The notes beneath the pieces are model-generated. The model was not told the origin of the DNA, did not search any database, and worked only from the letters and a program-made list of their open reading frames with translations. A program made the position numbers and the translations under genes. 64,000 nucleotides of DNA from a virus (taxonomy: Duplodnaviria > Caudoviricetes), in IMG/VR virus record IMGVR_UViG_3300033273_000833, positions 96,001-160,000 of that record, one strand, 5' to 3'. Position 1 is the first letter of the stretch, and every line of letters starts with the position of its first letter. Positions 45,494 to 56,364 of the stretch are shown here, piece after piece.

Positions 45494-45834
45494 CATAAAT
45501 TGAGAAACAAACTCAAATAAATAAAATAAATTGATCTTTAACATTTTTAACACTTTGGAAGGGCTTATAATCCTTCCTGTGGGTGACTGAACAAACCTGT
45601 CGTAAGCGGGTTAAAGTATGCAGATCCCTGTGGTGGGGATGACAGAGTCCAATCGGATGAGTCAAATGGCAAATACCACGCCTAGTCTGTAGTTCAAAGT
45701 AGGAAACTCGAAACTGAAAGTTTACGCCGAAAAGATGGAGGTATCTCAGAATCCTCCCCCACACTATATTTCCCCATCCGTGTAACCCCCACACATCCCG
45801 CCCCTCTCAGGAATATTCTTGAGAGGGGTTTTTT
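45494..45834 (+). ncRNA. Stand-alone structured ncRNA transcript resembling the manA RNA motif (core about 45557-45763)
   Basis: Own promoter TTGACA(45459)-17-TATAAT; boxA-like TGATCTTTAACA 45532-45543; stems GGAAGG/CCTTCC, TGTGGG/CCCACA, GTAA tetraloop hairpin, ATCCC/GGGAT, GGAGG/CCTCC; terminator at 45801. GGGTGACTGAA.AAAC..GGTTAA and GGTAT..GAATCC recalled from manA RNAs. Confidence 0.65.
45801..45834 (+). terminator. Intrinsic terminator
   Basis: CCCCTCTCAGGA-atat-TCTTGAGAGGGG followed by T6. Confidence 0.9.
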
Positions 45835-45872: not shown

Positions 45873-46127
45873 ATGAAAACATTAAAAGACATATTATCAA
45901 ACTACGGATACATCACGAAACCTCAGCTTGCCGAGATCGTTGATTATTTCCCGCACATGAAGGTCGTCATTAAATGGGGAGGAATGCCCCGTGAACGGGT
46001 TCATGCTTGGGAGGCAATCCAACGCATCGAAAAGGTAGAGAACGAGGATATTGACTACTGTCGAGAAGTTTTTCTTAGTGGTAAAGATTGCGAGAATCTT
46101 AGAGTAGCACTACATATAGCAAACTAA
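45873..46127 (+). CDS. Hypothetical early protein
   Basis: Start 7 nt after CATACT of the promoter at 45838. Confidence 0.65.
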   Translation: MKTLKDILSNYGYITKPQLAEIVDYFPHMKVVIKWGGMPRERVHAWEAIQRIEKVENEDIDYCREVFLSGKDCENLRVALHIAN

Positions 46128-46315
46128 ATGGAAATTATTTTAGGTGCAATAGTAATTACAATTTGTCTCGTCTGTAAAGAAGATTAATCTTTTTATTCAA
46201 TCATATCATATAATGACATAGCAAATATACATATAACAAATATATAAGTAGCAAATATACAACAAATATATAAAGCTATAATTTAAACAAAAATTTATAA
46301 AATTAAAATTCAATT

Positions 46316-46344
46316 CGTAAAGGGTTGAGCGTCAGTGTTTTGCG
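46316..46344. repeat. 29-bp palindromic element, copy A1
   Basis: CGTAAAGGGTTGA-gcg-TCAGTGTTTTGCG. Confidence 0.7.
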
Positions 46345-46363
46345 GAATCGCCCTGCCAAATTT

Positions 46364-46392
46364 CGCAATTATATGGTATTCAACAACTTACG
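46364..46392 (+). repeat. 29-bp palindromic element, copy A2 (19 bp after A1)
   Basis: CGCAATTATATGG-tat-TCAACAACTTACG. Confidence 0.9.
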
Positions 46393-46419
46393 AATCACAA
46401 AGTAGTTTTTTGCAATTTT

Positions 46420-46448
46420 CGCAATTATATGGTATTCAACGACTTACG
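46420..46448 (+). repeat. 29-bp palindromic element, copy A3
   Basis: CGCAATTATATGG-tat-TCAACGACTTACG; 18 bp before TTGACT. Confidence 0.9.
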
Positions 46449-46501
46449 ACTATTTTAAAAAAAGGCTTGACTTGCGGAAGTTTTCTGTCATAATTGTATA
46501 C

Positions 46502-46879
46502 ATGATCAGAACAAAAAGCGACAAGAGATACGACATCGACTTTAGTAAGAAGGTGTTTGTATATAAGAATCTTCATAAAGACTGTTGGTCAGTCAAACAA
46601 GGCGGGCTTGTCAAGGCACACGCAGACAGCTTGGAGATGTGGGATTGCAGCTTCCAAGTAAACCAAAAGGGGCGGGCAAAAGTCATTCAAGAAAAGCGTA
46701 AGAATGTTCATGCGGGCATTTCAGGCAGGATAGACGATCTTGGTGGAACAATTGCAATTGGCACAGAAGTTACATACAACCCGTACAAGTATAGCTCTTT
46801 TGTAGAAAAAGGCACAGAAAATCCCGTATATTATGCAGGATTTGCATCATTAACCCATAACAGAGTACTAGTAGCATGA
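46502..46879 (+). CDS. Conserved phage hypothetical protein
   Basis: KVFVYKNLHKDCWSV, VNQKGRAKV..EKRKNVHAGI, VTYNPYK; start 7 nt after CATAAT. Confidence 0.7.
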   Translation: MIRTKSDKRYDIDFSKKVFVYKNLHKDCWSVKQGGLVKAHADSLEMWDCSFQVNQKGRAKVIQEKRKNVHAGISGRIDDLGGTIAIGTEVTYNPYKYSSFVEKGTENPVYYAGFASLTHNRVLVA

Positions 46880-48293
46880 AAGAAGAATTAAAAAGAATAG
46901 AATGTGCAATCGACGGAGTCGCCGACGAATTATTAGAACATCGTCGTCATGGAAACATGGCGGATCTACTCAGAGTTATGCGGGACATTAATGAAAATCT
47001 ATGCACCATCAGCTATGAGCTCAAAGAGTTAGTTAATCAGAAAAAAAACCTTGACATTGAACAAAAAATTTCATAGTATTATATCATGCAAGAAACAATA
47101 GATATCACACCAAAATGGTCAGCACTCATTCCTATTATGGTTGAGGTGTTGAAGAGTCCAAAAGCAAACAGCTCAGCAAAAGCAGAAGTCACCGAAGAAC
47201 TACTTCGTCTCGCAAAGATTGTAGACGATCAAAACCAAAAAGCAAAACAATGACATTATCAGAATCAATTATGGATATCGTTAGAGGTAACCTCGCATGG
47301 TCAGATCCCATGTCAACAGTTTGCCTCGATCAACATGAGCGTCATCCCGAAAAGTTTCCACTAGGGAGTGCATTCCAAAGTGAAGATGAATCTTTAGCAG
47401 ATATCATTAGAGACTTGACAGTATTACAAGATGAGCGTAGAATAGAATCATCTTTTCAATCAGCAGAACTATAAAATTATGACAGTATTAGACACACCCG
47501 AACAAATCGATATGTTTCGATTCCTTAGCCTCAAATCCGCACTCAAGCTAGAGTGTCTTGGAATGACTAGAAGAGGTCAATCAGCATATTCAATTATTAA
47601 AGCCGAGTACGGATTCAAAGGCAACAAGAACTCCGTCTTAGAACAAATGGAACAAATTATCAAGGAGTTTAAAAATGACTAAAGCACAGGTTGAATCACA
47701 AGTAGAGAGTTGGAATTGGAATCTCAATATCTTTGAGATTTATGATGAGCTCCGCGATGGGTATACCGCAGACGAGCAAGAACAACTTTTAACTTACGCA
47801 TATAATTTTTTCAATAAAGATAAAATGATGGTAGAACTTGCGTCCCACTTTGGAATTAACATAGGAGAAGATGAATAGTTCAGCATTAGAATATATCCGT
47901 AAGATCCAAAATCTTTTAGAAGACAACGAAGAACTCGTAATCCATAAAAATTCTTTTGAACTTAAAGATGAAGAAAATGAAGAGAATTATGATTTTGATG
48001 TTGACATGATCAAGCAAATGTACGATAATTAAACCATGACAAACACAATGCAAAACAATTACTTAGAAGCCCTATGCGAGGGAAAACCACTCGGATTACC
48101 CGAATACAACGAAGGTACAGAACAATGGGAGCTTTTCTTTGAAGAGAACCACGACGATTGGCATCCGTACTTTCAGAGAGATATAATTTCATATAGTTGT
48201 GACTCAGCTGAGGAAGCTACAGACTTATACAACTATTACAACAGAAACCCAATAGTGGCAGAACCACTAGTAGAAGAAGGAGAACAATCCTAA
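46876..48293 (+). other. Small early ORFs (46876-47076, 47086-47253, 47250-47474, 47479-47682, 47675-47878, 48036-48293)
   Basis: ORF track plus manual translation; promoters at 47051 and 48001. Confidence 0.6.
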
Positions 48294-48529
48294 TGTTAAG
48301 GAAACTCAAAAACAAGTTAGCTGCTTTGTTCAGCTCAACCTATAATGTCGTGTATACTACCGAAGATGGTAGGACGCAAATGTACACCATCTCCAAGCCC
48401 ATGCACAAGCGTGAGTTTGGCAACGCTAGCGAGGGCAAGAGAGTCGTAGGCTTTCGTGCTCATTGCTTTAACCGCAACGGAATTCGTTCTTTCCGTTATG
48501 ATCGTATCATCTCTTTGGTTAGGGGGTAA
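48293..48529 (+). CDS. Small WYL-like (Sm-fold) protein
   Basis: C-terminal GIRSFRYDRI matches the WYL RxFRxDRI signature. Confidence 0.55.
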   Translation: MLRKLKNKLAALFSSTYNVVYTTEDGRTQMYTISKPMHKREFGNASEGKRVVGFRAHCFNRNGIRSFRYDRIISLVRG

Positions 48530-48532
48530 GAT

Positions 48533-48697
48533 ATGCAGAAGCGAATCGAACACTTAAGGCGCCAAGTTCGCGAGTTAGCTCATATGCTAGCTAGCGAAGA
48601 GGCGGAAGGCATTTATTTATCAGAGCATAACGAGCGCAGGTCTCGCCATAATGCGCTACTAGAAGAGCTCTATCATCTAGAGAAACGAGTCTTTTAA
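48533..48697 (+). CDS. Small helical hypothetical protein (not in ORF track)
   Basis: 54 aa MQKRIEHLRRQVRELAHML... Confidence 0.5.
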   Translation: MQKRIEHLRRQVRELAHMLASEEAEGIYLSEHNERRSRHNALLEELYHLEKRVF

Positions 48698-48732
48698 TTT
48701 CATGGTCATATCGTAATCGGTGGTTAGTGTAT

Positions 48733-48760
48733 GCCCCCTCCAATTGGAGGGGGCTTTTTT
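48733..48760 (+). terminator. Intrinsic terminator
   Basis: GCCCCCTCC-aatt-GGAGGGGGC followed by T6. Confidence 0.9.
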
Positions 48761-48829
48761 GTTGGTAATCAACGTTTTATGAAATTTTCCTAAGCGATCT
48801 TGCAATTATATGATATTCAACAACTTAAG
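48753..48829 (+). repeat. Element pair B: half-degenerate B1 (48753-48781), 19 bp gap, B2 (48801-48829)
   Basis: GTTGG-taa-TCAACGTTTTATG then TGCAATTATATGA-tat-TCAACAACTTAAG. Confidence 0.85.
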
Positions 48830-48892
48830 ATAACTGCAAAAAAAAATTATTTTTTGCTTGCAATTAACTCACAATCTGTCATAATTATATAT

Positions 48893-49012
48893 ATGAAAAC
48901 GACAGAGATAAAGATAAGAAAACCGATCCTTTTCACTAAGGCTCGCCCGCACAAACTTAAAAACAAAATCATACATAGAAAGCTGAAGCACAAAAAATCT
49001 TTAATTTCCTAA
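48893..49012 (+). CDS. 39-aa basic peptide
   Basis: MKTTEIKIRKPILFTKARPHKLKNKIIHRKLKHK; start 7 nt after CATAAT. Confidence 0.55.
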   Translation: MKTTEIKIRKPILFTKARPHKLKNKIIHRKLKHKKSLIS

Positions 49013-49057
49013 AATTAATTCTTGACAAAACACTAAAACTCAACTATTATTATACTT

Positions 49058-49906
49058 ATGAATAACGAACAAAAAACCAACAATCTCCGCATCTGTGGCG
49101 GTGAGCACAAAGTAGTAGAAATCGACCAAGTTAGAGCAGTTCAGACTCCGCCTATCGAGTTTCGTAAGGAACTCAACAAGAATGGCGAGCGTTCAATCTC
49201 TTACCAACCGATCTCTCATTCTCTTCTTATTGATAAAACTCGCAATCATCTTGAGCAAGCGGGCTTTACTATCGAGGCAGAGTGCCATAACCTAGCGAGA
49301 AACGATCAAAGATACTTTGGTCTGTACCAAGTTTCTCATCCTAAAAGAGAAGCTTCAGACCGAGGCACTATCGTAGGGCTTCGCAATGCCCATGACAAGT
49401 GCTTCCCTGCAGGACTTTGTGCAGGTGATGCTCCTTTTGTCTGTGACAATCTTATCTTTACCAACGAGGTCAAACTTGCTCGTAGGCATACCAAGAACAT
49501 TCTCAATGAGCTTGACCATGTTATTGCTCGTACTCTTGGCAGACTCTTCAACTTTTGGGTTGCCCAAGATAGTAGGATTGATGCCTACAAAGAACATGAG
49601 CTTAAAAATGCTCAAGTCAACGATCTTGTGATCCGTGCTTGCAAGGCAGGTGCTTTGCCTAAGTCAAAGATCATTGATGTTGTTGACCAATGGGAGAAAT
49701 CCGATCATCCCGAATTTTGGGATAGGAATGTAAACTCATTGTACAACGCTTTCACAGAGGTTTACAAGGGTAACCTTACCGCATTACCTCAACGCTCCGA
49801 AGCATTGCACTCCGTGCTTGACTCCGAAGTGGGCTTTGATTCATCAAGCTTTAAGCAGGATGAGATAATCGAAGCCGAGGTAGTCGGTGCAGGTGACCCC
49901 TTCTAA
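49058..49906 (+). CDS. DUF932 family protein
   Basis: YQPISH, RYFGLY, GLRNAHDK..AGLCAGDAPFVCDNL, SLYNAFTE. Confidence 0.8.
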   Translation: MNNEQKTNNLRICGGEHKVVEIDQVRAVQTPPIEFRKELNKNGERSISYQPISHSLLIDKTRNHLEQAGFTIEAECHNLARNDQRYFGLYQVSHPKREASDRGTIVGLRNAHDKCFPAGLCAGDAPFVCDNLIFTNEVKLARRHTKNILNELDHVIARTLGRLFNFWVAQDSRIDAYKEHELKNAQVNDLVIRACKAGALPKSKIIDVVDQWEKSDHPEFWDRNVNSLYNAFTEVYKGNLTALPQRSEALHSVLDSEVGFDSSSFKQDEIIEAEVVGAGDPF

Positions 49907-49932
49907 GGTTGCTGGTCATATCGTGTCGTTCA

Positions 49933-49965
49933 GCCCCCTTCCAATCGGAAGGGGGTTTTTCTTTT
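49933..49965 (+). terminator. Intrinsic terminator
   Basis: GCCCCCTTCC-aatc-GGAAGGGGGT followed by a T-rich tract. Confidence 0.9.
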
Positions 49966-50041
49966 GCAAGTGACTGAGTATCAGTTAATTGCGAAAATCG
50001 CCTAAGAAAAATTTTAATTATATGATATTCAACGACTTATG
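49965..50041 (+). repeat. Element pair C: C1 (49965-49993), 19 bp gap, C2 (50013-50041)
   Basis: TGCAAGTGACTGA-gta-TCAGTTAATTGCG; TTTAATTATATGA-tat-TCAACGACTTATG. Confidence 0.9.
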
Positions 50042-50105
50042 ACAAAGTGAAAAAAAATGAAAAAAGGGGTTGACAGATGTCCCCAACTTGTCTAGTATTG
50101 TATAC

Positions 50106-50846
50106 ATGATTAAAACGACACTACTCACTTCAGGTAACCAAAAAATTGTCAAGGGCGAAAAACTTGGTTACATCACAAAAGGAATTCACTTAGCTCCAGC
50201 CAACCTTGCGGGCTACGAAGTTTGCCAATGGCGTTCTAAAGGTTGCACAATGGCTTGTTTAAACACAGCAGGTCGTGGTCAAATGAATTCCGTTCAAGCT
50301 TCACGCATTGCCAAGACAAAGTTATTCTTTGAACAGAAAAAAGATTTCATGATTAAGCTTTGCAAAGAAATCGCTTCAACAATCAAATCTGCAAACAAGA
50401 AAGAAATGAAAGCGGTTTTCCGTCTCAATCTCACAAGTGACATCGCATGGGAAGATGTTTACATGAAAGATCCAAACTATAACATTTTTGAATACTTTTG
50501 TGCAGAACAATTCTACGACTACACAAAGTCATTCAAGAGAATGTGTGCTTATCTTGGCAAGCCATTCACTAAAGATGAACAAAAATTTCCATCTAATTAT
50601 CACTTAACCTTTTCTCGCTCAGAGCATAACGATAAGAAGTGCGAAATGGTGCTTGCTATGGGTGGGAATGTTGCCGTTGTGTTTCGCAATCAACTTCCTA
50701 AGACTTGGAAGGGTTATGAAGTTGTCAATGGTGATGATACCGACTTGCGTTTCTTAGACAAGAAAGGAGTGGTCGTTGGGCTTATCGAAAAAGGTATGGC
50801 AAAGAAAGATGAGACAGGCTTCGTACAGGAAGGAGTGGACTCATGA
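50106..50846 (+). CDS. GP88 family phage protein
   Basis: LAPAN..GYEVC, CLNTAGRG, FRLNLTSDIAW, QFYDYTK, NYHLTFS, NGDDTDLRFLD; start 7 nt after TAGTAT. Confidence 0.8.
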   Translation: MIKTTLLTSGNQKIVKGEKLGYITKGIHLAPANLAGYEVCQWRSKGCTMACLNTAGRGQMNSVQASRIAKTKLFFEQKKDFMIKLCKEIASTIKSANKKEMKAVFRLNLTSDIAWEDVYMKDPNYNIFEYFCAEQFYDYTKSFKRMCAYLGKPFTKDEQKFPSNYHLTFSRSEHNDKKCEMVLAMGGNVAVVFRNQLPKTWKGYEVVNGDDTDLRFLDKKGVVVGLIEKGMAKKDETGFVQEGVDS

Positions 50847-51212
50847 GCGATACTTATTACGACTCAGCCGAATCCGTTATGATATCACAAGAGCGGGCAT
50901 TTCAAGAGCTTACAAACCACGGTTGCCAAGAATTCGAAGAGTTCCTGGCGGACATGGGCGACAAGGAAGAATACTCAGCTCAGGCAGTGCTTGAATGGCT
51001 AGGATATTAAACACTTTAAAACAATTAAAAATTTTATACAATCATATGTGGACTACGAAGAATATATTTTTTGCCTTTACCTTTTTAATGAATGCGCGCA
51101 GGACCTGGACGGATTCCTGGAAGCCTTTGACGTTATCGACATGGCCTTTCCGCGAACTTGCAGAGTTTTAGCGGACCAGGGATTCTTTCATAAAGACTTG
51201 TGCTTCAATTAA
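50843..51212 (+). other. Two small acidic ORFs not in the track (50843-51010; 51048-51212 GTG start)
   Basis: Manual translation: MSDTYYDSAESVMISQERAF...; VDYEEYIFCLYLFNECAQ... Confidence 0.5.
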
Positions 51213-51265
51213 TTGCAAGAAAACCCTATCCATTTTTGCAAGACGTTGAACCATAGGCATTTATA
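51189..51265 (+). repeat. Element pair D (degenerate): D1 (51189-51217), 19 bp gap, D2 (51237-51265)
   Basis: CATAAAGACTTGT-gct-TCAATTAATTGCA; TGCAAGACGTTGA-acc-ATAGGCATTTATA. Confidence 0.6.
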
Positions 51266-51381
51266 AAATCAAAACTATACAGACAAAAATTAAAATCGAA
51301 TTTACTGAAAAAAAAGGTTGACTTTACTTAAAAAAATGTCATACTTATAGGTATAGATTAACTTAACAAAGGAATATTATT

Positions 51382-51789
51382 ATGGGATTAGATCAGTCAG
51401 CATACGCAACTAAAGACAATCAACACGAAGATATAGCTACATGGAGAAAGCATAACAGGCTTCAAGGTTGGATGGAAGACTTATGGGAGCACAAAGGTAG
51501 ACCAAACTTTAACAAAGCAGACGCTACTCCGATGGGCGACTTCAACTGCATACCCGTAGAACTAACTCTCGAAGACATTGATTCACTAGAATATGCAATC
51601 AACAACTTTGAGCTACCCGAAACAGGTGGATTCTTTTTCGGCAATGATTCTTATTTTTGGACAGATGAAGAAGGTAATCCTTATCCCGATAATCATTACT
51701 ACTACAAAGACAATGATCTTTATTTCATCAAGAAGGCTCGTGATCTAATCAACAAAGGTTGGAAAGTATTCTACGACTCTTGGTGGTAA
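51382..51789 (+). CDS. Conserved phage protein (MGLD...WRKHN family)
   Basis: MGLDQSAY, WRKHNRLQGWM, LP.T.GFFFG, FYDSWW. Confidence 0.7.
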   Translation: MGLDQSAYATKDNQHEDIATWRKHNRLQGWMEDLWEHKGRPNFNKADATPMGDFNCIPVELTLEDIDSLEYAINNFELPETGGFFFGNDSYFWTDEEGNPYPDNHYYYKDNDLYFIKKARDLINKGWKVFYDSWW

Positions 51790-51833
51790 AAAAACTCTTG
51801 ACATAACAACTTTAATTTTATAGAATTTATATT

Positions 51834-52499
51834 ATGATTAAAGCACTAAAATCATTCGATGACTTAAAATTCGGTCCTCATCCTCACGCAAAAGACATGG
51901 GAGTTGTAGCAAGTCTAACTCTTGACAATGGCTACGCTTTTAGCGTTGTCGCCAATACTGAAGGCGGTAATCTGTTTTACGGCAATCATCCCGATAACTA
52001 TGAGGTTGCAGTATTTAATCCAGCAGGTCAATTCGTTCCTCTCTCTGTTTCGGACGATGTAATTGGTTGGCAACCTCCACATCAAATCACTTCATTAATG
52101 CATCAATTTGAGATTGACGGATTTCTTCATGAAAAATTACTCGTTGATCTTCGATCAGAATTCAATGAAAAAGTACTAGCGGAGCAAGAAGCAAGATTTA
52201 ACGCTTGACTTTTAATCAATCTTATACTATACTTATATCATAACAATCAGATAAACTAAACTATGACAAAAAAACAAAAACAAGCACTAAGTAAGGTTAA
52301 AACCTATACTCCTCATAATGTCAACAATCGTGACGAAAAGATTTGGTTCACATATGTTAACAAGAACAGAGTTCCCGTCTCTGCTTACTACGATACAACT
52401 AACGGATCATTCGTATCAGTTGTCAAGGGTTCTCAGTACAATGGCATCGCATTCCGTAAGGGCGTCGCCAAGAGAGTAATCTCAAAGATTCTTGGGTAA
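51834..52499 (+). other. Two early hypothetical ORFs (51834-52208, 52263-52499)
   Basis: Each has its own sigma70 promoter (51798, 52205). Confidence 0.65.
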
Positions 52500-52600
52500 T
52501 GGAACTACTATTTTTCACTCCGTGGATATTCGTATTTTATATGATGTTCTCGGATTTGTTAAGTGAGGATTCATAGTCGTTTATATCTTAGGTCAACTAC

Positions 52601-52634
52601 AAGCCCGCTAGCCTAAAAACTAGCGGGTTTTTTT
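52601..52634 (+). terminator. Intrinsic terminator at the convergence point
   Basis: AAGCCCGCTAG-loop-CTAGCGGGTTT followed by a T tract. Confidence 0.88.
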
Positions 52635-52745
52635 GTAAATAGGCAAATAGGCCAAATATAGATAAATAGGAGAGAATTTCGAGCGGTTTTCGAACTAACC
52701 AATTCAACTAAAAAGTTGTAAAATTCTTTTTTGCCTCCCCAGTTT

Positions 52746-52774
52746 CGCAATTATATGATAATCAACGACTTACT
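52746..52774 (+). repeat. 29-bp palindromic element, copy E
   Basis: CGCAATTATATGA-taa-TCAACGACTTACT. Confidence 0.9.
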
Positions 52775-52925
52775 GACTAGATAAGATCGGGGCTTTTGTT
52801 TTTTTGCTGAGCTTGCGGGCTATACGCATGGCGTTCGCGTGGCTCGTGGCGTTGTCTACTAGCTTGCCAAAAAGTCTGATATCAAACCAATTGGTAAAGT
52901 TTGGGTTTTTGTCTACATTTATCAT
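52770..52925 (-). CDS. 51-aa hypothetical protein (not in track), paralog of 55638-55814
   Basis: MINVDKNPNFTNWFDIRLFGKLVDNATSHANAMRIARKL... Confidence 0.65.
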   Translation of the reverse strand: MINVDKNPNFTNWFDIRLFGKLVDNATSHANAMRIARKLSKKTKAPILSSQ

Positions 52926-52929
52926 AGTA

Positions 52930-53542
52930 TTATGCAAAGAATGGATGAAGCCTTACATCCGAAAAGCGGATGCCAACCTTGCGGTTGGTGCGATACGGGC
53001 GAACCATTGCGATTCTTCCGAGATCTTCATGATCTGTTGGTTTGATAAACTCGAAGAGTTTGCCGTCGCGTGAAATGAGCAAATCGCCCTTTTTGAATTG
53101 ATCTCCGTAAGCCATAATTTTTTAGTGTTGAGTTACTACATTGAAACGAGGAGAGTTGAGATTCTCTTCTCTTTTGATTGTTCTAAGGTGTGAAAGACTT
53201 GAGGCAGTCCGAACCCGTGGGTAATCGGTTCCTGTGTCGAAGATCTTAACAGACCAATGCGTTGACCATTTTTTGATTCTAACTTGTATTTTATCGTTTA
53301 ACATATTATTACTATAAGAAATTTTTTTTGAAATTGCAAGAAAAAAGTGATTTTTTTCACTCCCATTCGGAGTGAAAGCCCCAATCAATGTCGGGCTGTT
53401 CCTCAAAGTCGAGGAGGGCAACCTTATCTTGAAGGTCGCCGATTTCGTTGCGGATCGCAACGCGATCAGCGGAAGTGAGAACGGAGTCCGCAAGGACTTC
53501 GTGGAGGAGAGAGATTTTGTCGAGCATTTCAGTTTTAGTCAT
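52930..53542 (-). other. Three minus-strand early ORFs (52930-53115, 53122-53304, 53357-53542)
   Basis: Minus-strand promoters with -35 at 53334-53339 and 53606-53611. Confidence 0.65.
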
Positions 53543-53645
53543 ATCTTTTTTTTGGTTAAATTGTTTATCTTAGTATATGTATAACATAGCACAGAAAAGG
53601 GCAAAAGTCAAGTTTTTTTTGAAAAAAGATTCGATTATTTTTTTG

Positions 53646-53702
53646 CACAATTATATTTTTGCCTAGCCAGATTTGCAATTATCTGACTTTCAACGACTTA
53701 GA
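53646..53702 (+). repeat. Half-site CACAATT plus full element F (53674-53702)
   Basis: TGCAATTATCTGA-ctt-TCAACGACTTAGA; half-site starts 28 bp upstream. Confidence 0.85.
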
Positions 53703-54006
53703 AGACAAGAGGATCGGGCAATGAATTAGGAGCCGCGAACCAATCGTTTGCGTCAATTACTTCGCCGTTTAGTACAGGCTCGAATTTGAATTGAGAAACA
53801 TTTGCATTGGCTATGCCGTTGACGCGTTCGCGTGTGGTCGGAGTATTCCAGCCCGCAAGTGACCAACGCACAAGCCCGTCGGCGTCACGCTTTACAATTG
53901 CGTTGCCATGTAGCCAAACGGTTTGCCCGTCTGTCTCGGTGTTTCCGACTTTTAAGGATGTGCCAGCATTGAAGGCGTTTCTTATTTGTTCTGTAACTTT
54001 TCTCAT
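53698..54006 (-). CDS. Conserved phage hypothetical protein
   Basis: MRKVTEQI..AF..G..LKVGNT, LHGNAI, AGWNTPTTRERVNG. Confidence 0.75.
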   Translation of the reverse strand: MRKVTEQIRNAFNAGTSLKVGNTETDGQTVWLHGNAIVKRDADGLVRWSLAGWNTPTTRERVNGIANANVSQFKFEPVLNGEVIDANDWFAAPNSLPDPLVF

Positions 54007-54033
54007 ATCTTTATTATTAATGATTTTGTGTGA

Positions 54034-54487
54034 TTATGCAAGCGGAAAAAAGGAAAAAAAGAGTTTTTGTGCAAGTAAATTTTGTGCCCGCTCTTCGGCT
54101 TCTTCTTCTTGCTGTTCTAGTTTCTCAAGATCAATTTCTGCCTGAATTACTTTTATTTGAGATTGGATGTGTCCAGCGTTTGCATCGAAGACATGATCTT
54201 TGATAAGTTGCTCTAGTTTACTGATTTCTTTTTTTATGTTCATGATATAACTATAAGAAAATTTTTATTTAATTGCAAGCTAAAAAGAAAGTTTTTTACG
54301 CAACCCACTCGACAAGCTCGAACTTGCGAGGCAAGCCAAACTTTGCGAGATCTTTGTTTAAGTCTTCAATGGATGCGTGGTGCTCGCATTTCATCATTAC
54401 ATTACGCTCGACGACTTCGCCGCTTTTGCGATCAATTATATTTACTTTGGCGATGAAGCCGTTTACTTGTTTATCATTTTTAATCAT
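54034..54487 (-). other. Two minus-strand early ORFs (54034-54243, 54296-54487)
   Basis: Leaderless-type promoters with -35 at 54273-54278 and 54516-54521. Confidence 0.65.
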
Positions 54488-54545
54488 ACCTTACTATCGC
54501 ATAAAAAACGCAAAAAGTCAAGAAAAACTTTCGACTATTTTTTTG

Positions 54546-54602
54546 CACAATTCTACTTTTGGTAGGCTAGTCTCGCAATTAGCTGACTAGCAGTAACTTA
54601 GG
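54546..54602 (+). repeat. Half-site CACAATT plus full element G (54574-54602)
   Basis: CGCAATTAGCTGA-cta-GCAGTAACTTAGG; half-site starts 28 bp upstream. Confidence 0.8.
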
Positions 54603-55448
54603 TAATCGTCTATATCGTCGAAGTTTGCATATGCAAAAGGTGTGCTTCGCTGTCTTGTACCACTATTATAGGCAGATTGTGCATCTTCTAGTATTCCAAG
54701 CTTCTTGAGATAGGATATTGCACCTTTATCGTAGAATGGCACACCATGGTAGCCTAGCGTCCAGGCGAAGTCAATTGCTTTGTCGGGGTCATCATCTAAG
54801 TAGGCATCCTTGGCGATCTTGCCTGATTCTCTCATTTTAGATTCTAATTTTGTATAGCTCATTACTTAGCCTTTCTTTCTTTGTAGATTACTGCTTGGTA
54901 TGCCTTGCGAGCTTCTTGCACTGCATGGAGAGCGTCGAGGATTGCCATGCCTTGGGTGATGGTCAAGGTTTGGTCGCCTTCGGTGTTGGTTGACTCGGCA
55001 AGGAAGTTGAGGTTACCCTCGGCTTTAGATAGGGCAAGCCCTAGGTCGAGCTTGCTACGAAACTTGTCGATTGTTGTAGTTGTAGTTGTAGTTGTCATAT
55101 GTGTTATATACTAAGGTAGTTGATGTTAAAAGTCAAGCATTTCTTTCTACTGATTTCCATCCAAAAGCTTTTACTTTATCTTGATGGCGGGCTTGTGGCA
55201 ACATTGCCTTGAGTTCAGCAATGCGGGCGAGCTTCCAATCTATCTCGCTTTGATCCATTTTACCTTTCCACATTTGCATTTGTAGTTTGTCTAATCTTAT
55301 TTCTCTTTGTATTTGTTCTTCTGTCATATCTATAAACTAGCAATCTTTTCTTGTTTTGTCAAACTTTATTTTACTTTTTTTTAGCTATTACAAACTTAAG
55401 TAAAATCTTTTCTCTTTCAGTTAGTTGTGTTGTATCAATCTTTATCAT
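54587..55448 (-). other. Minus-strand early ORFs (54587-54862, 54862-55098 poly-Thr start, 55133-55327, short ORF starting at 55448)
   Basis: Promoters with -35 at 55131-55136, 55357-55362, 55478-55483. Confidence 0.65.
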
Positions 55449-55507
55449 ATATACAACATAGCAAAGAAATGCTAAAAAGTCAAGAAAAACTTTAAACTAT
55501 TTTATTG

Positions 55508-55564
55508 CACAATTCTACTTTTGCTAGAGCAATCGCACAATTATATGACTATAAGCAACTTACA
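55508..55564 (+). repeat. Half-site CACAATT plus full element H (55536-55564) between divergent promoters
   Basis: CACAATTATATGA-cta-TAAGCAACTTACA; half-site starts 28 bp upstream. Confidence 0.8.
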
Positions 55565-55637
55565 ACAAAGTGAAAAAAACTTTAATTTTTTTTAAAAAAC
55601 ACTTGACTTTTGCAGAAAAATTTCTTATATTTAGAGC

Positions 55638-55814
55638 ATGATTAAGATTGAGAAAAACGAAAACATTTCACGCTTTTGGAACATCTTCGCCTTCGGCAAG
55701 TTCGTCAAGGAGATCGAAGGGCGAGCCAAAGCATTCAGCTATGCCAAGGCTCTTGCACAAGAGAATGACCAAAAGTTTTTGGTCGATCACAAAAAAAGAA
55801 TCATTGAGGCTTGA
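55638..55814 (+). CDS. 58-aa hypothetical protein (not in track)
   Basis: MIKIEKNENISRFWNIFAFGKFVKEIEG...; 6 nt after TATATT of the promoter at 55603. Confidence 0.7.
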   Translation: MIKIEKNENISRFWNIFAFGKFVKEIEGRAKAFSYAKALAQENDQKFLVDHKKRIIEA

Positions 55815-55846
55815 CATTACAACCCAACTATACTAGATTATATACT

Positions 55847-56364
55847 ATGGATAACATCGAAAGAATTCGCCAAGCAGTAGAAAACGCCGAGCAAGGTTTC
55901 CGCCTCGCTCCTAGATTTGCATCATTGCAAGAAGAACTCCAAGAAGAGATTCAAGCTGAAGAGCTTGTAGTCAATCATGGTTTACTTCAAGCAAGTGATG
56001 ATGACATCAGAGAAGAACACGCTTCTCTTGATTCAGTCGAGTATGATATGGATGATGTCGATTATGACATGGACGAGAACGAGGTTGACATGACTTCTCT
56101 CAGTCCTGCAATGCGTGAGATCTTCGGAGAATGAAACAGCTACCTAAACGAAACAAGCGTGAGTCATCTTTCCGTTGGGTTATGTTCGGGCAAGCAGGTC
56201 AAGTCCTGTTTGCCCTGATCGACCCAAACAATTGGGTACTCAAGCCGAACTCTTATTTTGTCAGCGATTCATTCATTCAAGCGAATCTTGCGAGAGTCAA
56301 GAACATATCGAGACAAGTCGAAGGCAAGACAAAGGTTCTCATGCTACAGGATGGGGTGGCATAG
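55847..56364 (+). other. Two early ORFs (55847-56134 acidic; 56131-56364)
   Basis: Promoter TTGACA(55811)-17-TAGATT-7-ATG. Confidence 0.65.

Follow-up and report, generated by a model that had tools for sequence, protein, structure and literature searches.

A 29-bp palindrome repeated at the early-promoter cassettes of an uncultured marine phage: a candidate shared operator

The early region and its repeated palindrome

The virus record IMGVR_UViG_3300033273_000833, a caudovirus genome of marine source that is rated complete at 203,067 bp, carries in its early region an array of 29-bp imperfect palindromes, each made of two 13-bp arms around a variable 3-nt centre. We analyzed this array in a 64,000-bp stretch of the record (bases 96,001-160,000, hereafter the window), to which positions refer unless otherwise stated. 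The early region consists of about 35 small genes, arranged in a plus-strand block (46.5-52.5 kb), a minus-strand block (52.8-55.3 kb) and a second plus-strand block starting at 55.6 kb, and its G+C content (window 46000-56000) is 36-42% vs 30-34% in the remaining window. The recognizable protein families encoded there are an L5 gp82-like protein, DUF932, GP88 and Kyanoviridae gp96, none of which is a known DNA binder. Sequences of the early region were present in seawater metagenomes from 11 studies. No cultured phage matched the early region or the canonical form of the palindrome described below, and the best cultured relatives of GP88, which come from varied phages, were at most 47% identical.

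The degenerate pattern proposed in an earlier reading of this DNA (the original prediction), scanned at up to three mismatches with 100 shuffles as control, gave six matches in the window vs none in the shuffles. Two matrices were used for finer scoring, one built from the clear copies of the window and one, symmetric, from related phages (the family matrix). The window-copy matrix recovered eight forward copies of 22-45 bits, at 46364, 46420, 48801, 50013, 52746, 53674, 54574 and 55536; outside the reported sites, its best match in the whole genome was 12 bits. With the family matrix, all 13 positions of the original prediction fell within the top 18 matches of the genome. The copies at 46316 and 49965 were good by this matrix, and those at 51237, 51189 and 48753 were decayed, all under the best shuffled score of 12.4 bits (Table 1). 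The array is real, with eight strong, two good mirror-oriented and three decayed copies; all originally listed positions stand, and the count of at least 11 good and 2 degenerate copies becomes 10 and 3 by the family matrix. The four pairs with an identical 48-bp start-to-start spacing are also borne out by the coordinates. Whole-genome scans restricted the element to 46.3-55.6 kb, 9.3 kb out of 203 kb, in line with the earlier remark that none was noticed outside 46-56 kb.

Conservation among related phages

Six IMG/VR contigs, 87-89% identical to this genome, had the same copies in the same places. A protein search with GP88 led to 49 further loci (54-96% identity), in which the element is a true 13-3-13 palindrome, CGTAAGTCGTTGA-NNN-TCAACGACTTACG, with 483 sites vs 2 in shuffled sequence. 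Matrix scans of the full genome and of the relatives place the element in a single region here and find it in other phages as well. In the family matrix, A4, A5, T11, G12 and their mirror positions are conserved at 85-98%, the arms are least conserved at positions 6, 8 and 9, and the three central bases are free. Window copies combine a canonical right arm with a left arm, CGCAATTATATGA, that keeps all near-invariant positions and departs from the canonical sequence at positions 3, 6, 8, 9 and 10 alone, all of which vary family-wide. This variant left arm was limited to seven near-identical contigs, and a search for it as a symmetric palindrome elsewhere returned only four chance-level matches.

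A core-pattern scan of viral contigs yielded at least 119 stretches. Most of those listed contained site pairs 41-58 bp apart that recur at intervals of 0.3-1.5 kb, and the densest among the matches listed had 32 sites in 9.4 kb. The matched contigs share with this genome GP88, DUF932, the gp82-like protein, PhoH, a zinc-ribbon gene, a sigma factor and a probable terminase gene, and they can therefore be assigned to one large uncultured phage group. In four complete genomes of 148-211 kb, the sites formed one or two clusters of 3-11 kb each. The palindrome is conserved among phages with only 54-59% GP88 identity and unrelated flanks. We found no published description of the 29-bp element, a full-text search for the arm sequence having returned only an unrelated primer.

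Site-poor relatives (L059:9022-12166, L065:9912-13331 and L073:2391-8962) had other repeated elements upstream of their early promoters. One consisted of TTGCACAATYC-type arms that form an inverted repeat on either side of a GC-rich core; a second, AAATCGCCCGCCGATTT, resembles the spacer between the paired copies of the window. Since these alternative elements occupy the equivalent position, the upstream control module itself appears exchangeable within the group.

In bacterial genomes the core pattern gave more than 120 stretches. Most of those listed resemble perfect hairpins of a generic kind, which genomes commonly contain, namely terminators adjacent to tRNA genes and a repeat family of WOR-3. 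We rejected a host regulon of the element, as the genes beside matches in Bacteroidota genomes form no coherent regulon. Contigs of WOR-3 and Hydrothermia metagenome-assembled genomes (L104, L106, L117 and others) contained the core palindrome within a longer repeat with conserved flanks, present many times per genome. This repeat looks like a separate family, similar to miniature inverted-repeat transposable elements or repetitive extragenic palindromes.

A double-stranded site rather than a folded structure

When right arms were shuffled among sites within each genome, 2914 ± 20 complementary pairs were expected vs 2825 observed, and only the position pair 2-28 co-varied positively. Sites tend to join one good arm and one poor arm, as expected if selection acts on the total energy of binding; a stem would require the reverse. 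The strong copies of the window fold at 0 to -0.6 kcal/mol, no better than shuffles, and the copy at 49965 is the only one in the window with real hairpin potential (DNA fold -6.9 kcal/mol, z -4.6); the canonical copy of the relatives would fold at -13.2 kcal/mol as DNA. The strong copies differ from relatives by 6-8%, compared with 9-11.5% in the remaining intergenic DNA and 12-13.5% in coding DNA, and the decayed copies at 51189 and 51237 (12-17%) have diverged at least as fast as other DNA. The elements had no match in Rfam.

A putative protein-binding site in double-stranded DNA is the reading that fits the symmetry, the missing covariation, the folding and the divergence data together. 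The preference expressed earlier for a dimeric binding protein over a recombinase crossover is strengthened by the two-fold symmetry, by invariant positions that mirror each other around an unconstrained 3-nt centre, and by the lack of covariation between arms. Neither does the element resemble integron attC sites, which are conserved in structure, variable in sequence and folded as single strands: here the sequence is conserved, the arms do not covary and the window copies are unfolded.

Promoter and terminator layout

The canonical unit runs from a gene end through an intrinsic terminator, a first palindrome, a spacer, a second palindrome and an A-rich tract to a promoter and an ATG. Its promoter reads TTGACx-16/17-(TGn)TAnnnT, with the ATG 6-7 nt past the -10 box, and the plus-strand units of the window conform to this plan. 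The copies thus follow a gene end or terminator and precede the next promoter, as first described. The ATGs at 46502, 48893, 50106 and 55638 are 6-7 nt past a sigma70-type -10 box and are not preceded by a Shine-Dalgarno sequence, the same being seen throughout the related loci, which suggests that the early mRNAs would be leaderless. The spacer between paired palindromes measures 13-23 bp in the canonical unit and is often GC-rich; in many relatives it is a segment of 12-22 bp with about 90% G+C (for instance GCGCCCCCGCGC) amid A/T-rich DNA (L326:845-5950, L310:427-9010).

Distances from element centre to ATG cluster in the family at 53, 64-67, 78-79, 85-86 and 94-97 bp, and those of the window are 67, 77, 78 and 88 bp. 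We rejected helical phasing: the window distances look phased, but the family shows no preference for 10.5 bp over 8-11-bp periods.

In the minus-strand block the element is single, not paired, and the units at 53583-53678, 54493-54578 and 55455-55540 (minus strand) are paralogous modules of about 100 bp, 72-83% alike, each with tandem promoters P1 and P2. P1 takes its -35 box (TTGCGA or TTGCAA) from the left edge of the element, followed after 17 bp by TAGAAT or TATAAT, and P2 lies downstream. At 54574 the relatives have a P1 spacer of wholly different sequence but identical length, an argument for P1 being a real promoter. The CACAATT motif reported 28 bp upstream of 53674, 54574 and 55536 is in place there, but it is not the half-site of the element that it was taken for: it corresponds to the -10 box of P1 (TAGAAT or TATAAT on the minus strand), whose 17-bp spacer length is conserved.

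Table 1. Palindrome copies, promoters and terminators of the early region (window coordinates)
Feature	Position	Strand	Remarks
Mirror-oriented partner copy	46316..46344		48 bp upstream of 46364; 19.9 bits (family matrix); CGCAA-type arm on right side
Strong copy, variant left and canonical right arm	46364..46392		44.1 bits; middle of triple cluster upstream of gp82-like operon; conserved in relatives G002-G004
Strong promoter-proximal copy	46420..46448		45.3 bits, 22.6 by family matrix; centre 67-68 bp before ATG at 46502
Sigma70-type promoter TTGACT-16-CATAAT	46467..46504	+	ATG 7 nt past -10 box, leaderless layout
Intrinsic terminator closing upstream cassette	48733..48754	+	Others at 49932-49957 and 52601-52630
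Decayed partner copy	48753..48781		Overlaps terminator tail; 5.5 bits (family matrix); sole support, 48-bp register
Strong copy	48801..48829		Between terminator 48733-48754 and promoter 48858-48885
Mirror-oriented partner copy	49965..49993		Directly after terminator 49932-49957; 18.0 bits (family matrix); 18 bits on minus strand with window-copy matrix, better than on plus strand
Strong copy	50013..50041		Upstream of GP88 gene promoter 50070-50098
Promoter TTGACA-17-TAGTAT	50070..50108	+	ATG at 50106 (GP88 gene)
Decayed pair (51189 and 51237)	51189..51265		Upstream of promoter 51318-51345; 7.8 and 11.1 bits (family matrix)
Strong copy	52746..52774		3' end of minus-strand block; right half AATCAACGACTTA, exact IHF consensus fit
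Downstream promoter P2, TTGACT-17-TATGTT	53583..53611	-	Equivalents at 54493-54521 and 55455-55483
Strong copy	53674..53702		Left edge is -35 box of minus-strand promoter P1 (TTGCAA-17-TATAAT at 53678..53650)
Copy	54574..54602		Left edge is -35 box of minus-strand promoter P1 (TTGCGA-17-TAGAAT at 54578..54550)
Copy	55536..55564		Divergent region between minus block and next plus block; upstream of plus promoter 55603-55631

A candidate operator shared by early cassettes

From these sequence patterns we tentatively read the 29-bp element as a shared operator at the early-promoter cassettes, that is, a two-fold symmetric site for one putative sequence-specific DNA-binding protein, and we would place this reading slightly short of an even call. 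One dimer would sit on each palindrome, probably forming a dimer of dimers on each pair. Since almost all terminator-to-promoter junctions of the early region have a site, many separately transcribed cassettes of small genes would be controlled together. The binder would be encoded by the phage and have an unrecognized fold, and its effect would be negative, either early shut-off or an insulation between successive cassettes. Bound to DNA 50-100 bp upstream of the start, beside an A-rich UP-like tract, the protein would mask the -35 box of P1 as well in the minus block. As a side effect, the repeated regulatory units may offer a foothold for homologous recombination that exchanges cassettes.

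Several observations weigh against such an operator. Most sites lie off the core promoter, so that simple steric repression is inapplicable to the plus-strand promoters; the conservation advantage of the strong copies over other intergenic DNA is modest; and some relatives lack the palindrome and have different repeated elements in its place. Pfam searches of about 40 open reading frames (ORFs) between 44 and 58 kb found no DNA-binding domain, the only hints being weak ones to WYL (E 0.053) and HTH_12 (E 0.043), and the two small conserved families described next are both confidently folded with neither matching a DNA-binding fold.

The first of them, of 52-60 aa, has paralogues at 55638-55814 (plus strand, 58 aa) and 52770-52925 (minus strand) and was found in 56 related loci. 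The AlphaFold model of the 58-aa protein (pLDDT, the predicted local distance difference test, 94) has the order strand-strand-strand-helix-strand-strand and no significant match in the PDB, the best being the anti-CRISPR AcrIF5 (E 0.22). The second, a 67-aa protein at 47479-47682 (plus strand), belongs to a family of 63-75 aa with the invariant motif RG-S-YS-K-E-G, which was present in 24 of 33 site-rich loci vs 0 of 6 site-poor ones (p 0.0015, confounded by phylogeny); its three-helix model (pLDDT 91) had no PDB match. An ESM Atlas search with three ORFs returned nothing usable.

A wider proposition, possible and in our opinion rather doubtful, is that uncultured marine phages of about 150-210 kb use an undescribed lattice, in which palindrome pairs at essentially every early terminator-promoter junction and a putative binder, whose fold has so far no link to DNA binding, would synchronize early shut-off and define points of cassette exchange. 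Were these sites read by a single protein, that protein would be a master switch for the early genes of an abundant group of uncultured marine phages. A pair of 29-bp palindromes placed 50-100 bp upstream of promoters that otherwise conform to the consensus is unusual for bacterial repression, and this architecture could reveal a new control of host RNA polymerase from a distance. The sites would also be a simple sequence tag for finding early regions and cassette boundaries in metagenomic phage contigs; such regions are dense in small genes without assigned function, some of which may counter host defences.

The host IHF alternative

The main rival to a phage-encoded operator protein, which we consider unlikely while taking it seriously, is that the element is a high-affinity site of a host IHF-like DNA-bending protein. 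The palindrome would then represent two overlapping, oppositely oriented registers, the window lineage having moved to a classical asymmetric site with an A/T-rich half and a consensus half, and DNA bent upstream of the UP-like tract would strengthen the early promoters or give them architectural insulation. The IHF consensus is WATCARNNNNTTR with an optional A-tract half (10.1101/382655; consensus also in PMC8942017), and each arm of the element fits it as YAANNNNTTGATW (WATCAANNNNTTR on the other strand). The most conserved positions, T3 A4 A5 ... T10 T11 G12 A13 and their mirrors, are those specified by the consensus, with values in the family matrix of 0.72 for T17, 0.85 for C18, 0.98 for A19, 0.97 for A/G20, 0.95 for T25, 0.97 for T26 and 0.96 for A/G27. 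We estimated the chance of a match somewhere in the element at about 0.007, before correction for the number of consensus sequences tried; the consensus was brought into the comparison only once the motif was known.

Further agreement with IHF comes from the copy at 52746, a perfect consensus match, and from the A/T-rich variant left arm of the window lineage, which contains AATTATAT and recalls the optional A-tract half, so that these copies resemble the classical asymmetric layout. A single good arm would suffice for IHF, in agreement with the combination of good and poor arms. The footprint is about the right size, a location 50-100 bp upstream of strong promoters agrees with such a role, no phage-encoded binder was found, and the core is kept across very divergent phages.

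The fit is nevertheless incomplete. The consensus is found in one half of the element as IHF would need, though its W and A positions are not conserved: in WATCAA they are free, element positions 15 and 16 having 0 and 0.05 bits. Conversely, C1, G2, G6, T7, C8 and C24 are conserved outside the consensus, and E. coli IHF does not require them. The ancestral form of the element is symmetric, with the consensus in both halves; as WATCAR lies between the two kinks, the two registers of the palindrome would be mutually exclusive, an odd design. Finally, PF00216 (HU/IHF) genes were found in none of five complete phage genomes, so that the host would have to supply the protein.

Cassette exchange and mobile modules

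A second alternative to the shared operator, which we find rather improbable, dispenses with a dedicated binder: the element would belong, as a conserved component, to a mobile module of terminator and promoter, and this module would chiefly lead to homologous recombination between cassettes in the manner of the promoter early stem-loop (PeSL) cassettes of T4-type phages (PMC2839356, PMC4122927). The composite unit, a terminator followed by one or more elements and then a promoter, agrees with this. So do the close relatives in which two genes of the minus block have been replaced, with one junction of each replacement in the repeated promoter DNA beside 53674 or 54574, and the different genes that precede GP88 in different relatives. 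Alignment breakpoints at most 120 bp from a site numbered 351 vs 205 expected, a 1.7-fold enrichment that is confounded with intergenic position and with alignment artefacts induced by repeats. Metagenome contigs joined at element edges (46449 to 50150, 52773 to 50044 and 52773 to 46433) were each single and of low depth, and could be repeat artefacts.

The tie between the site system and cassette boundaries in the original prediction is supported. Its expectation that gene content should break at the elements holds as far as breaks fall close to promoter/element units, with the qualification that the junctions, where mapped, fall within repeated promoter DNA and outside the palindrome, and that the enrichment is confounded. 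Moreover, a recombination substrate would need neither two-fold symmetry nor an invariant mirrored core, nor would it have to be conserved down to 54-59% GP88 identity between unrelated flanks. Cassette exchange is likely a by-product of the repeats and not their purpose.

The array has several features in common with PeSL cassettes. Composite units of terminator and early promoter are repeated in both between small variable early genes, and gene content varies beside the units. The PeSL order of a stem-loop terminator followed by an early promoter recurs here from 48733-48754 to 48858-48885 and from 49932-49957 to 50070-50098, and again in the relatives. PeSLs, however, lack an additional paired palindrome, and the element here is symmetric, with a conservation well above what recombination needs; this phage also appears to belong to a different group from the T4-type phages.

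Polarity of the array

In all eight strong copies the left arm is the variant one, irrespective of how the flanking genes run, and the same is true of relatives G001-G005. This is what would favour a polar, genome-level site system in which orientation on the plus strand matters, for DNA-entry staging, for loading of a shielding protein or for another strand-specific process, a possibility that we regard as very improbable. The uniform left-to-right polarity first described does not extend to the upstream partners at 46316, 49965 and 51189, whose variant arm is on the right side, so that they are inverted. The family element is symmetric, and the variant arm occurs in seven near-identical contigs only, with no symmetric counterpart elsewhere. 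Since the units at 53674, 54574 and 55536 are paralogues of one module of about 100 bp, the eight copies are also not independent. Nothing supported the suggested roles in DNA-entry staging or shielding.

Pairs of the window are mirror-arranged, with the variant, weaker arms facing each other over the 19-bp spacer; across the wider family the inner arms of pairs are stronger than the outer ones (p about 1e-5). Because orientation is defined only at positions that are free in the family, the polarity seems to us to reflect the history of this lineage and not a functional requirement or a designed property of the genome.

We give hardly any credence to a structured nucleic acid (cruciform, single-strand hairpin promoter or origin, RNA processing site or terminator): canonical copies of the relatives would indeed form a 13-bp stem with a 3-nt loop, and the pattern also fits many perfect hairpins of bacterial genomes, but the arms do not covary, the strong conserved window copies are unfolded, Rfam has no match and the sites, placed after terminators and before promoters, would be little transcribed.

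Comparison with known systems

Judged by analogy, the array is most likely a variation on known phage strategies, namely the phi29 p4 sites, multi-copy operators and PeSL cassettes. Among characterized systems, the geometry of the element appears most like that of the phage phi29 p4 sites, which are inverted hexamers, CTTTTT-15-AAAATG, with unequal arms, present as two per region and bound by a small dimer of unique fold (PMC3100819). The corresponding arrangement here is GTAAGT (positions 2-7), 15 bp and ACTTAC (positions 23-28), in a site of about 27-29 bp with pairs 41-58 bp apart. Both kinds of site are pseudo-symmetric with unequal arms and lie tens of bp upstream of promoters for host RNA polymerase; the p4 dimer switches early promoters, and a comparable role is putative for the sites here. 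They also differ in that the sequences are unrelated, the arms here are not A-tracts, and phi29 has 4 sites at one switch region vs 10-30 at many cassettes here. The early ORFs had no match to a p4-like family in general Pfam scans, which included no search aimed at p4 homologues.

The stoperators of Cluster A mycobacteriophages are 13-bp asymmetric sites of a monomeric immunity repressor, oriented with transcription and distributed genome-wide (PMC9283540, PMC6550527). They share with the element, here a putative protein site, the occurrence of many copies in short intergenic regions of a phage. The copies studied here are by contrast 29-bp palindromes, gathered in one region (one or two clusters in relatives), with an orientation unrelated to transcription.

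Other features of the genome

The manA RNA family (RF01745) had a full-length match at 45557-45767 (plus strand), with 85 bits vs a gathering score of 55.2 (E 7e-21). A one-piece tmRNA gene lies outside the window (G000:C1:66699-67062), and its tag, GNKNRVKAFGLKAKKLALAA, might aid in finding the host.

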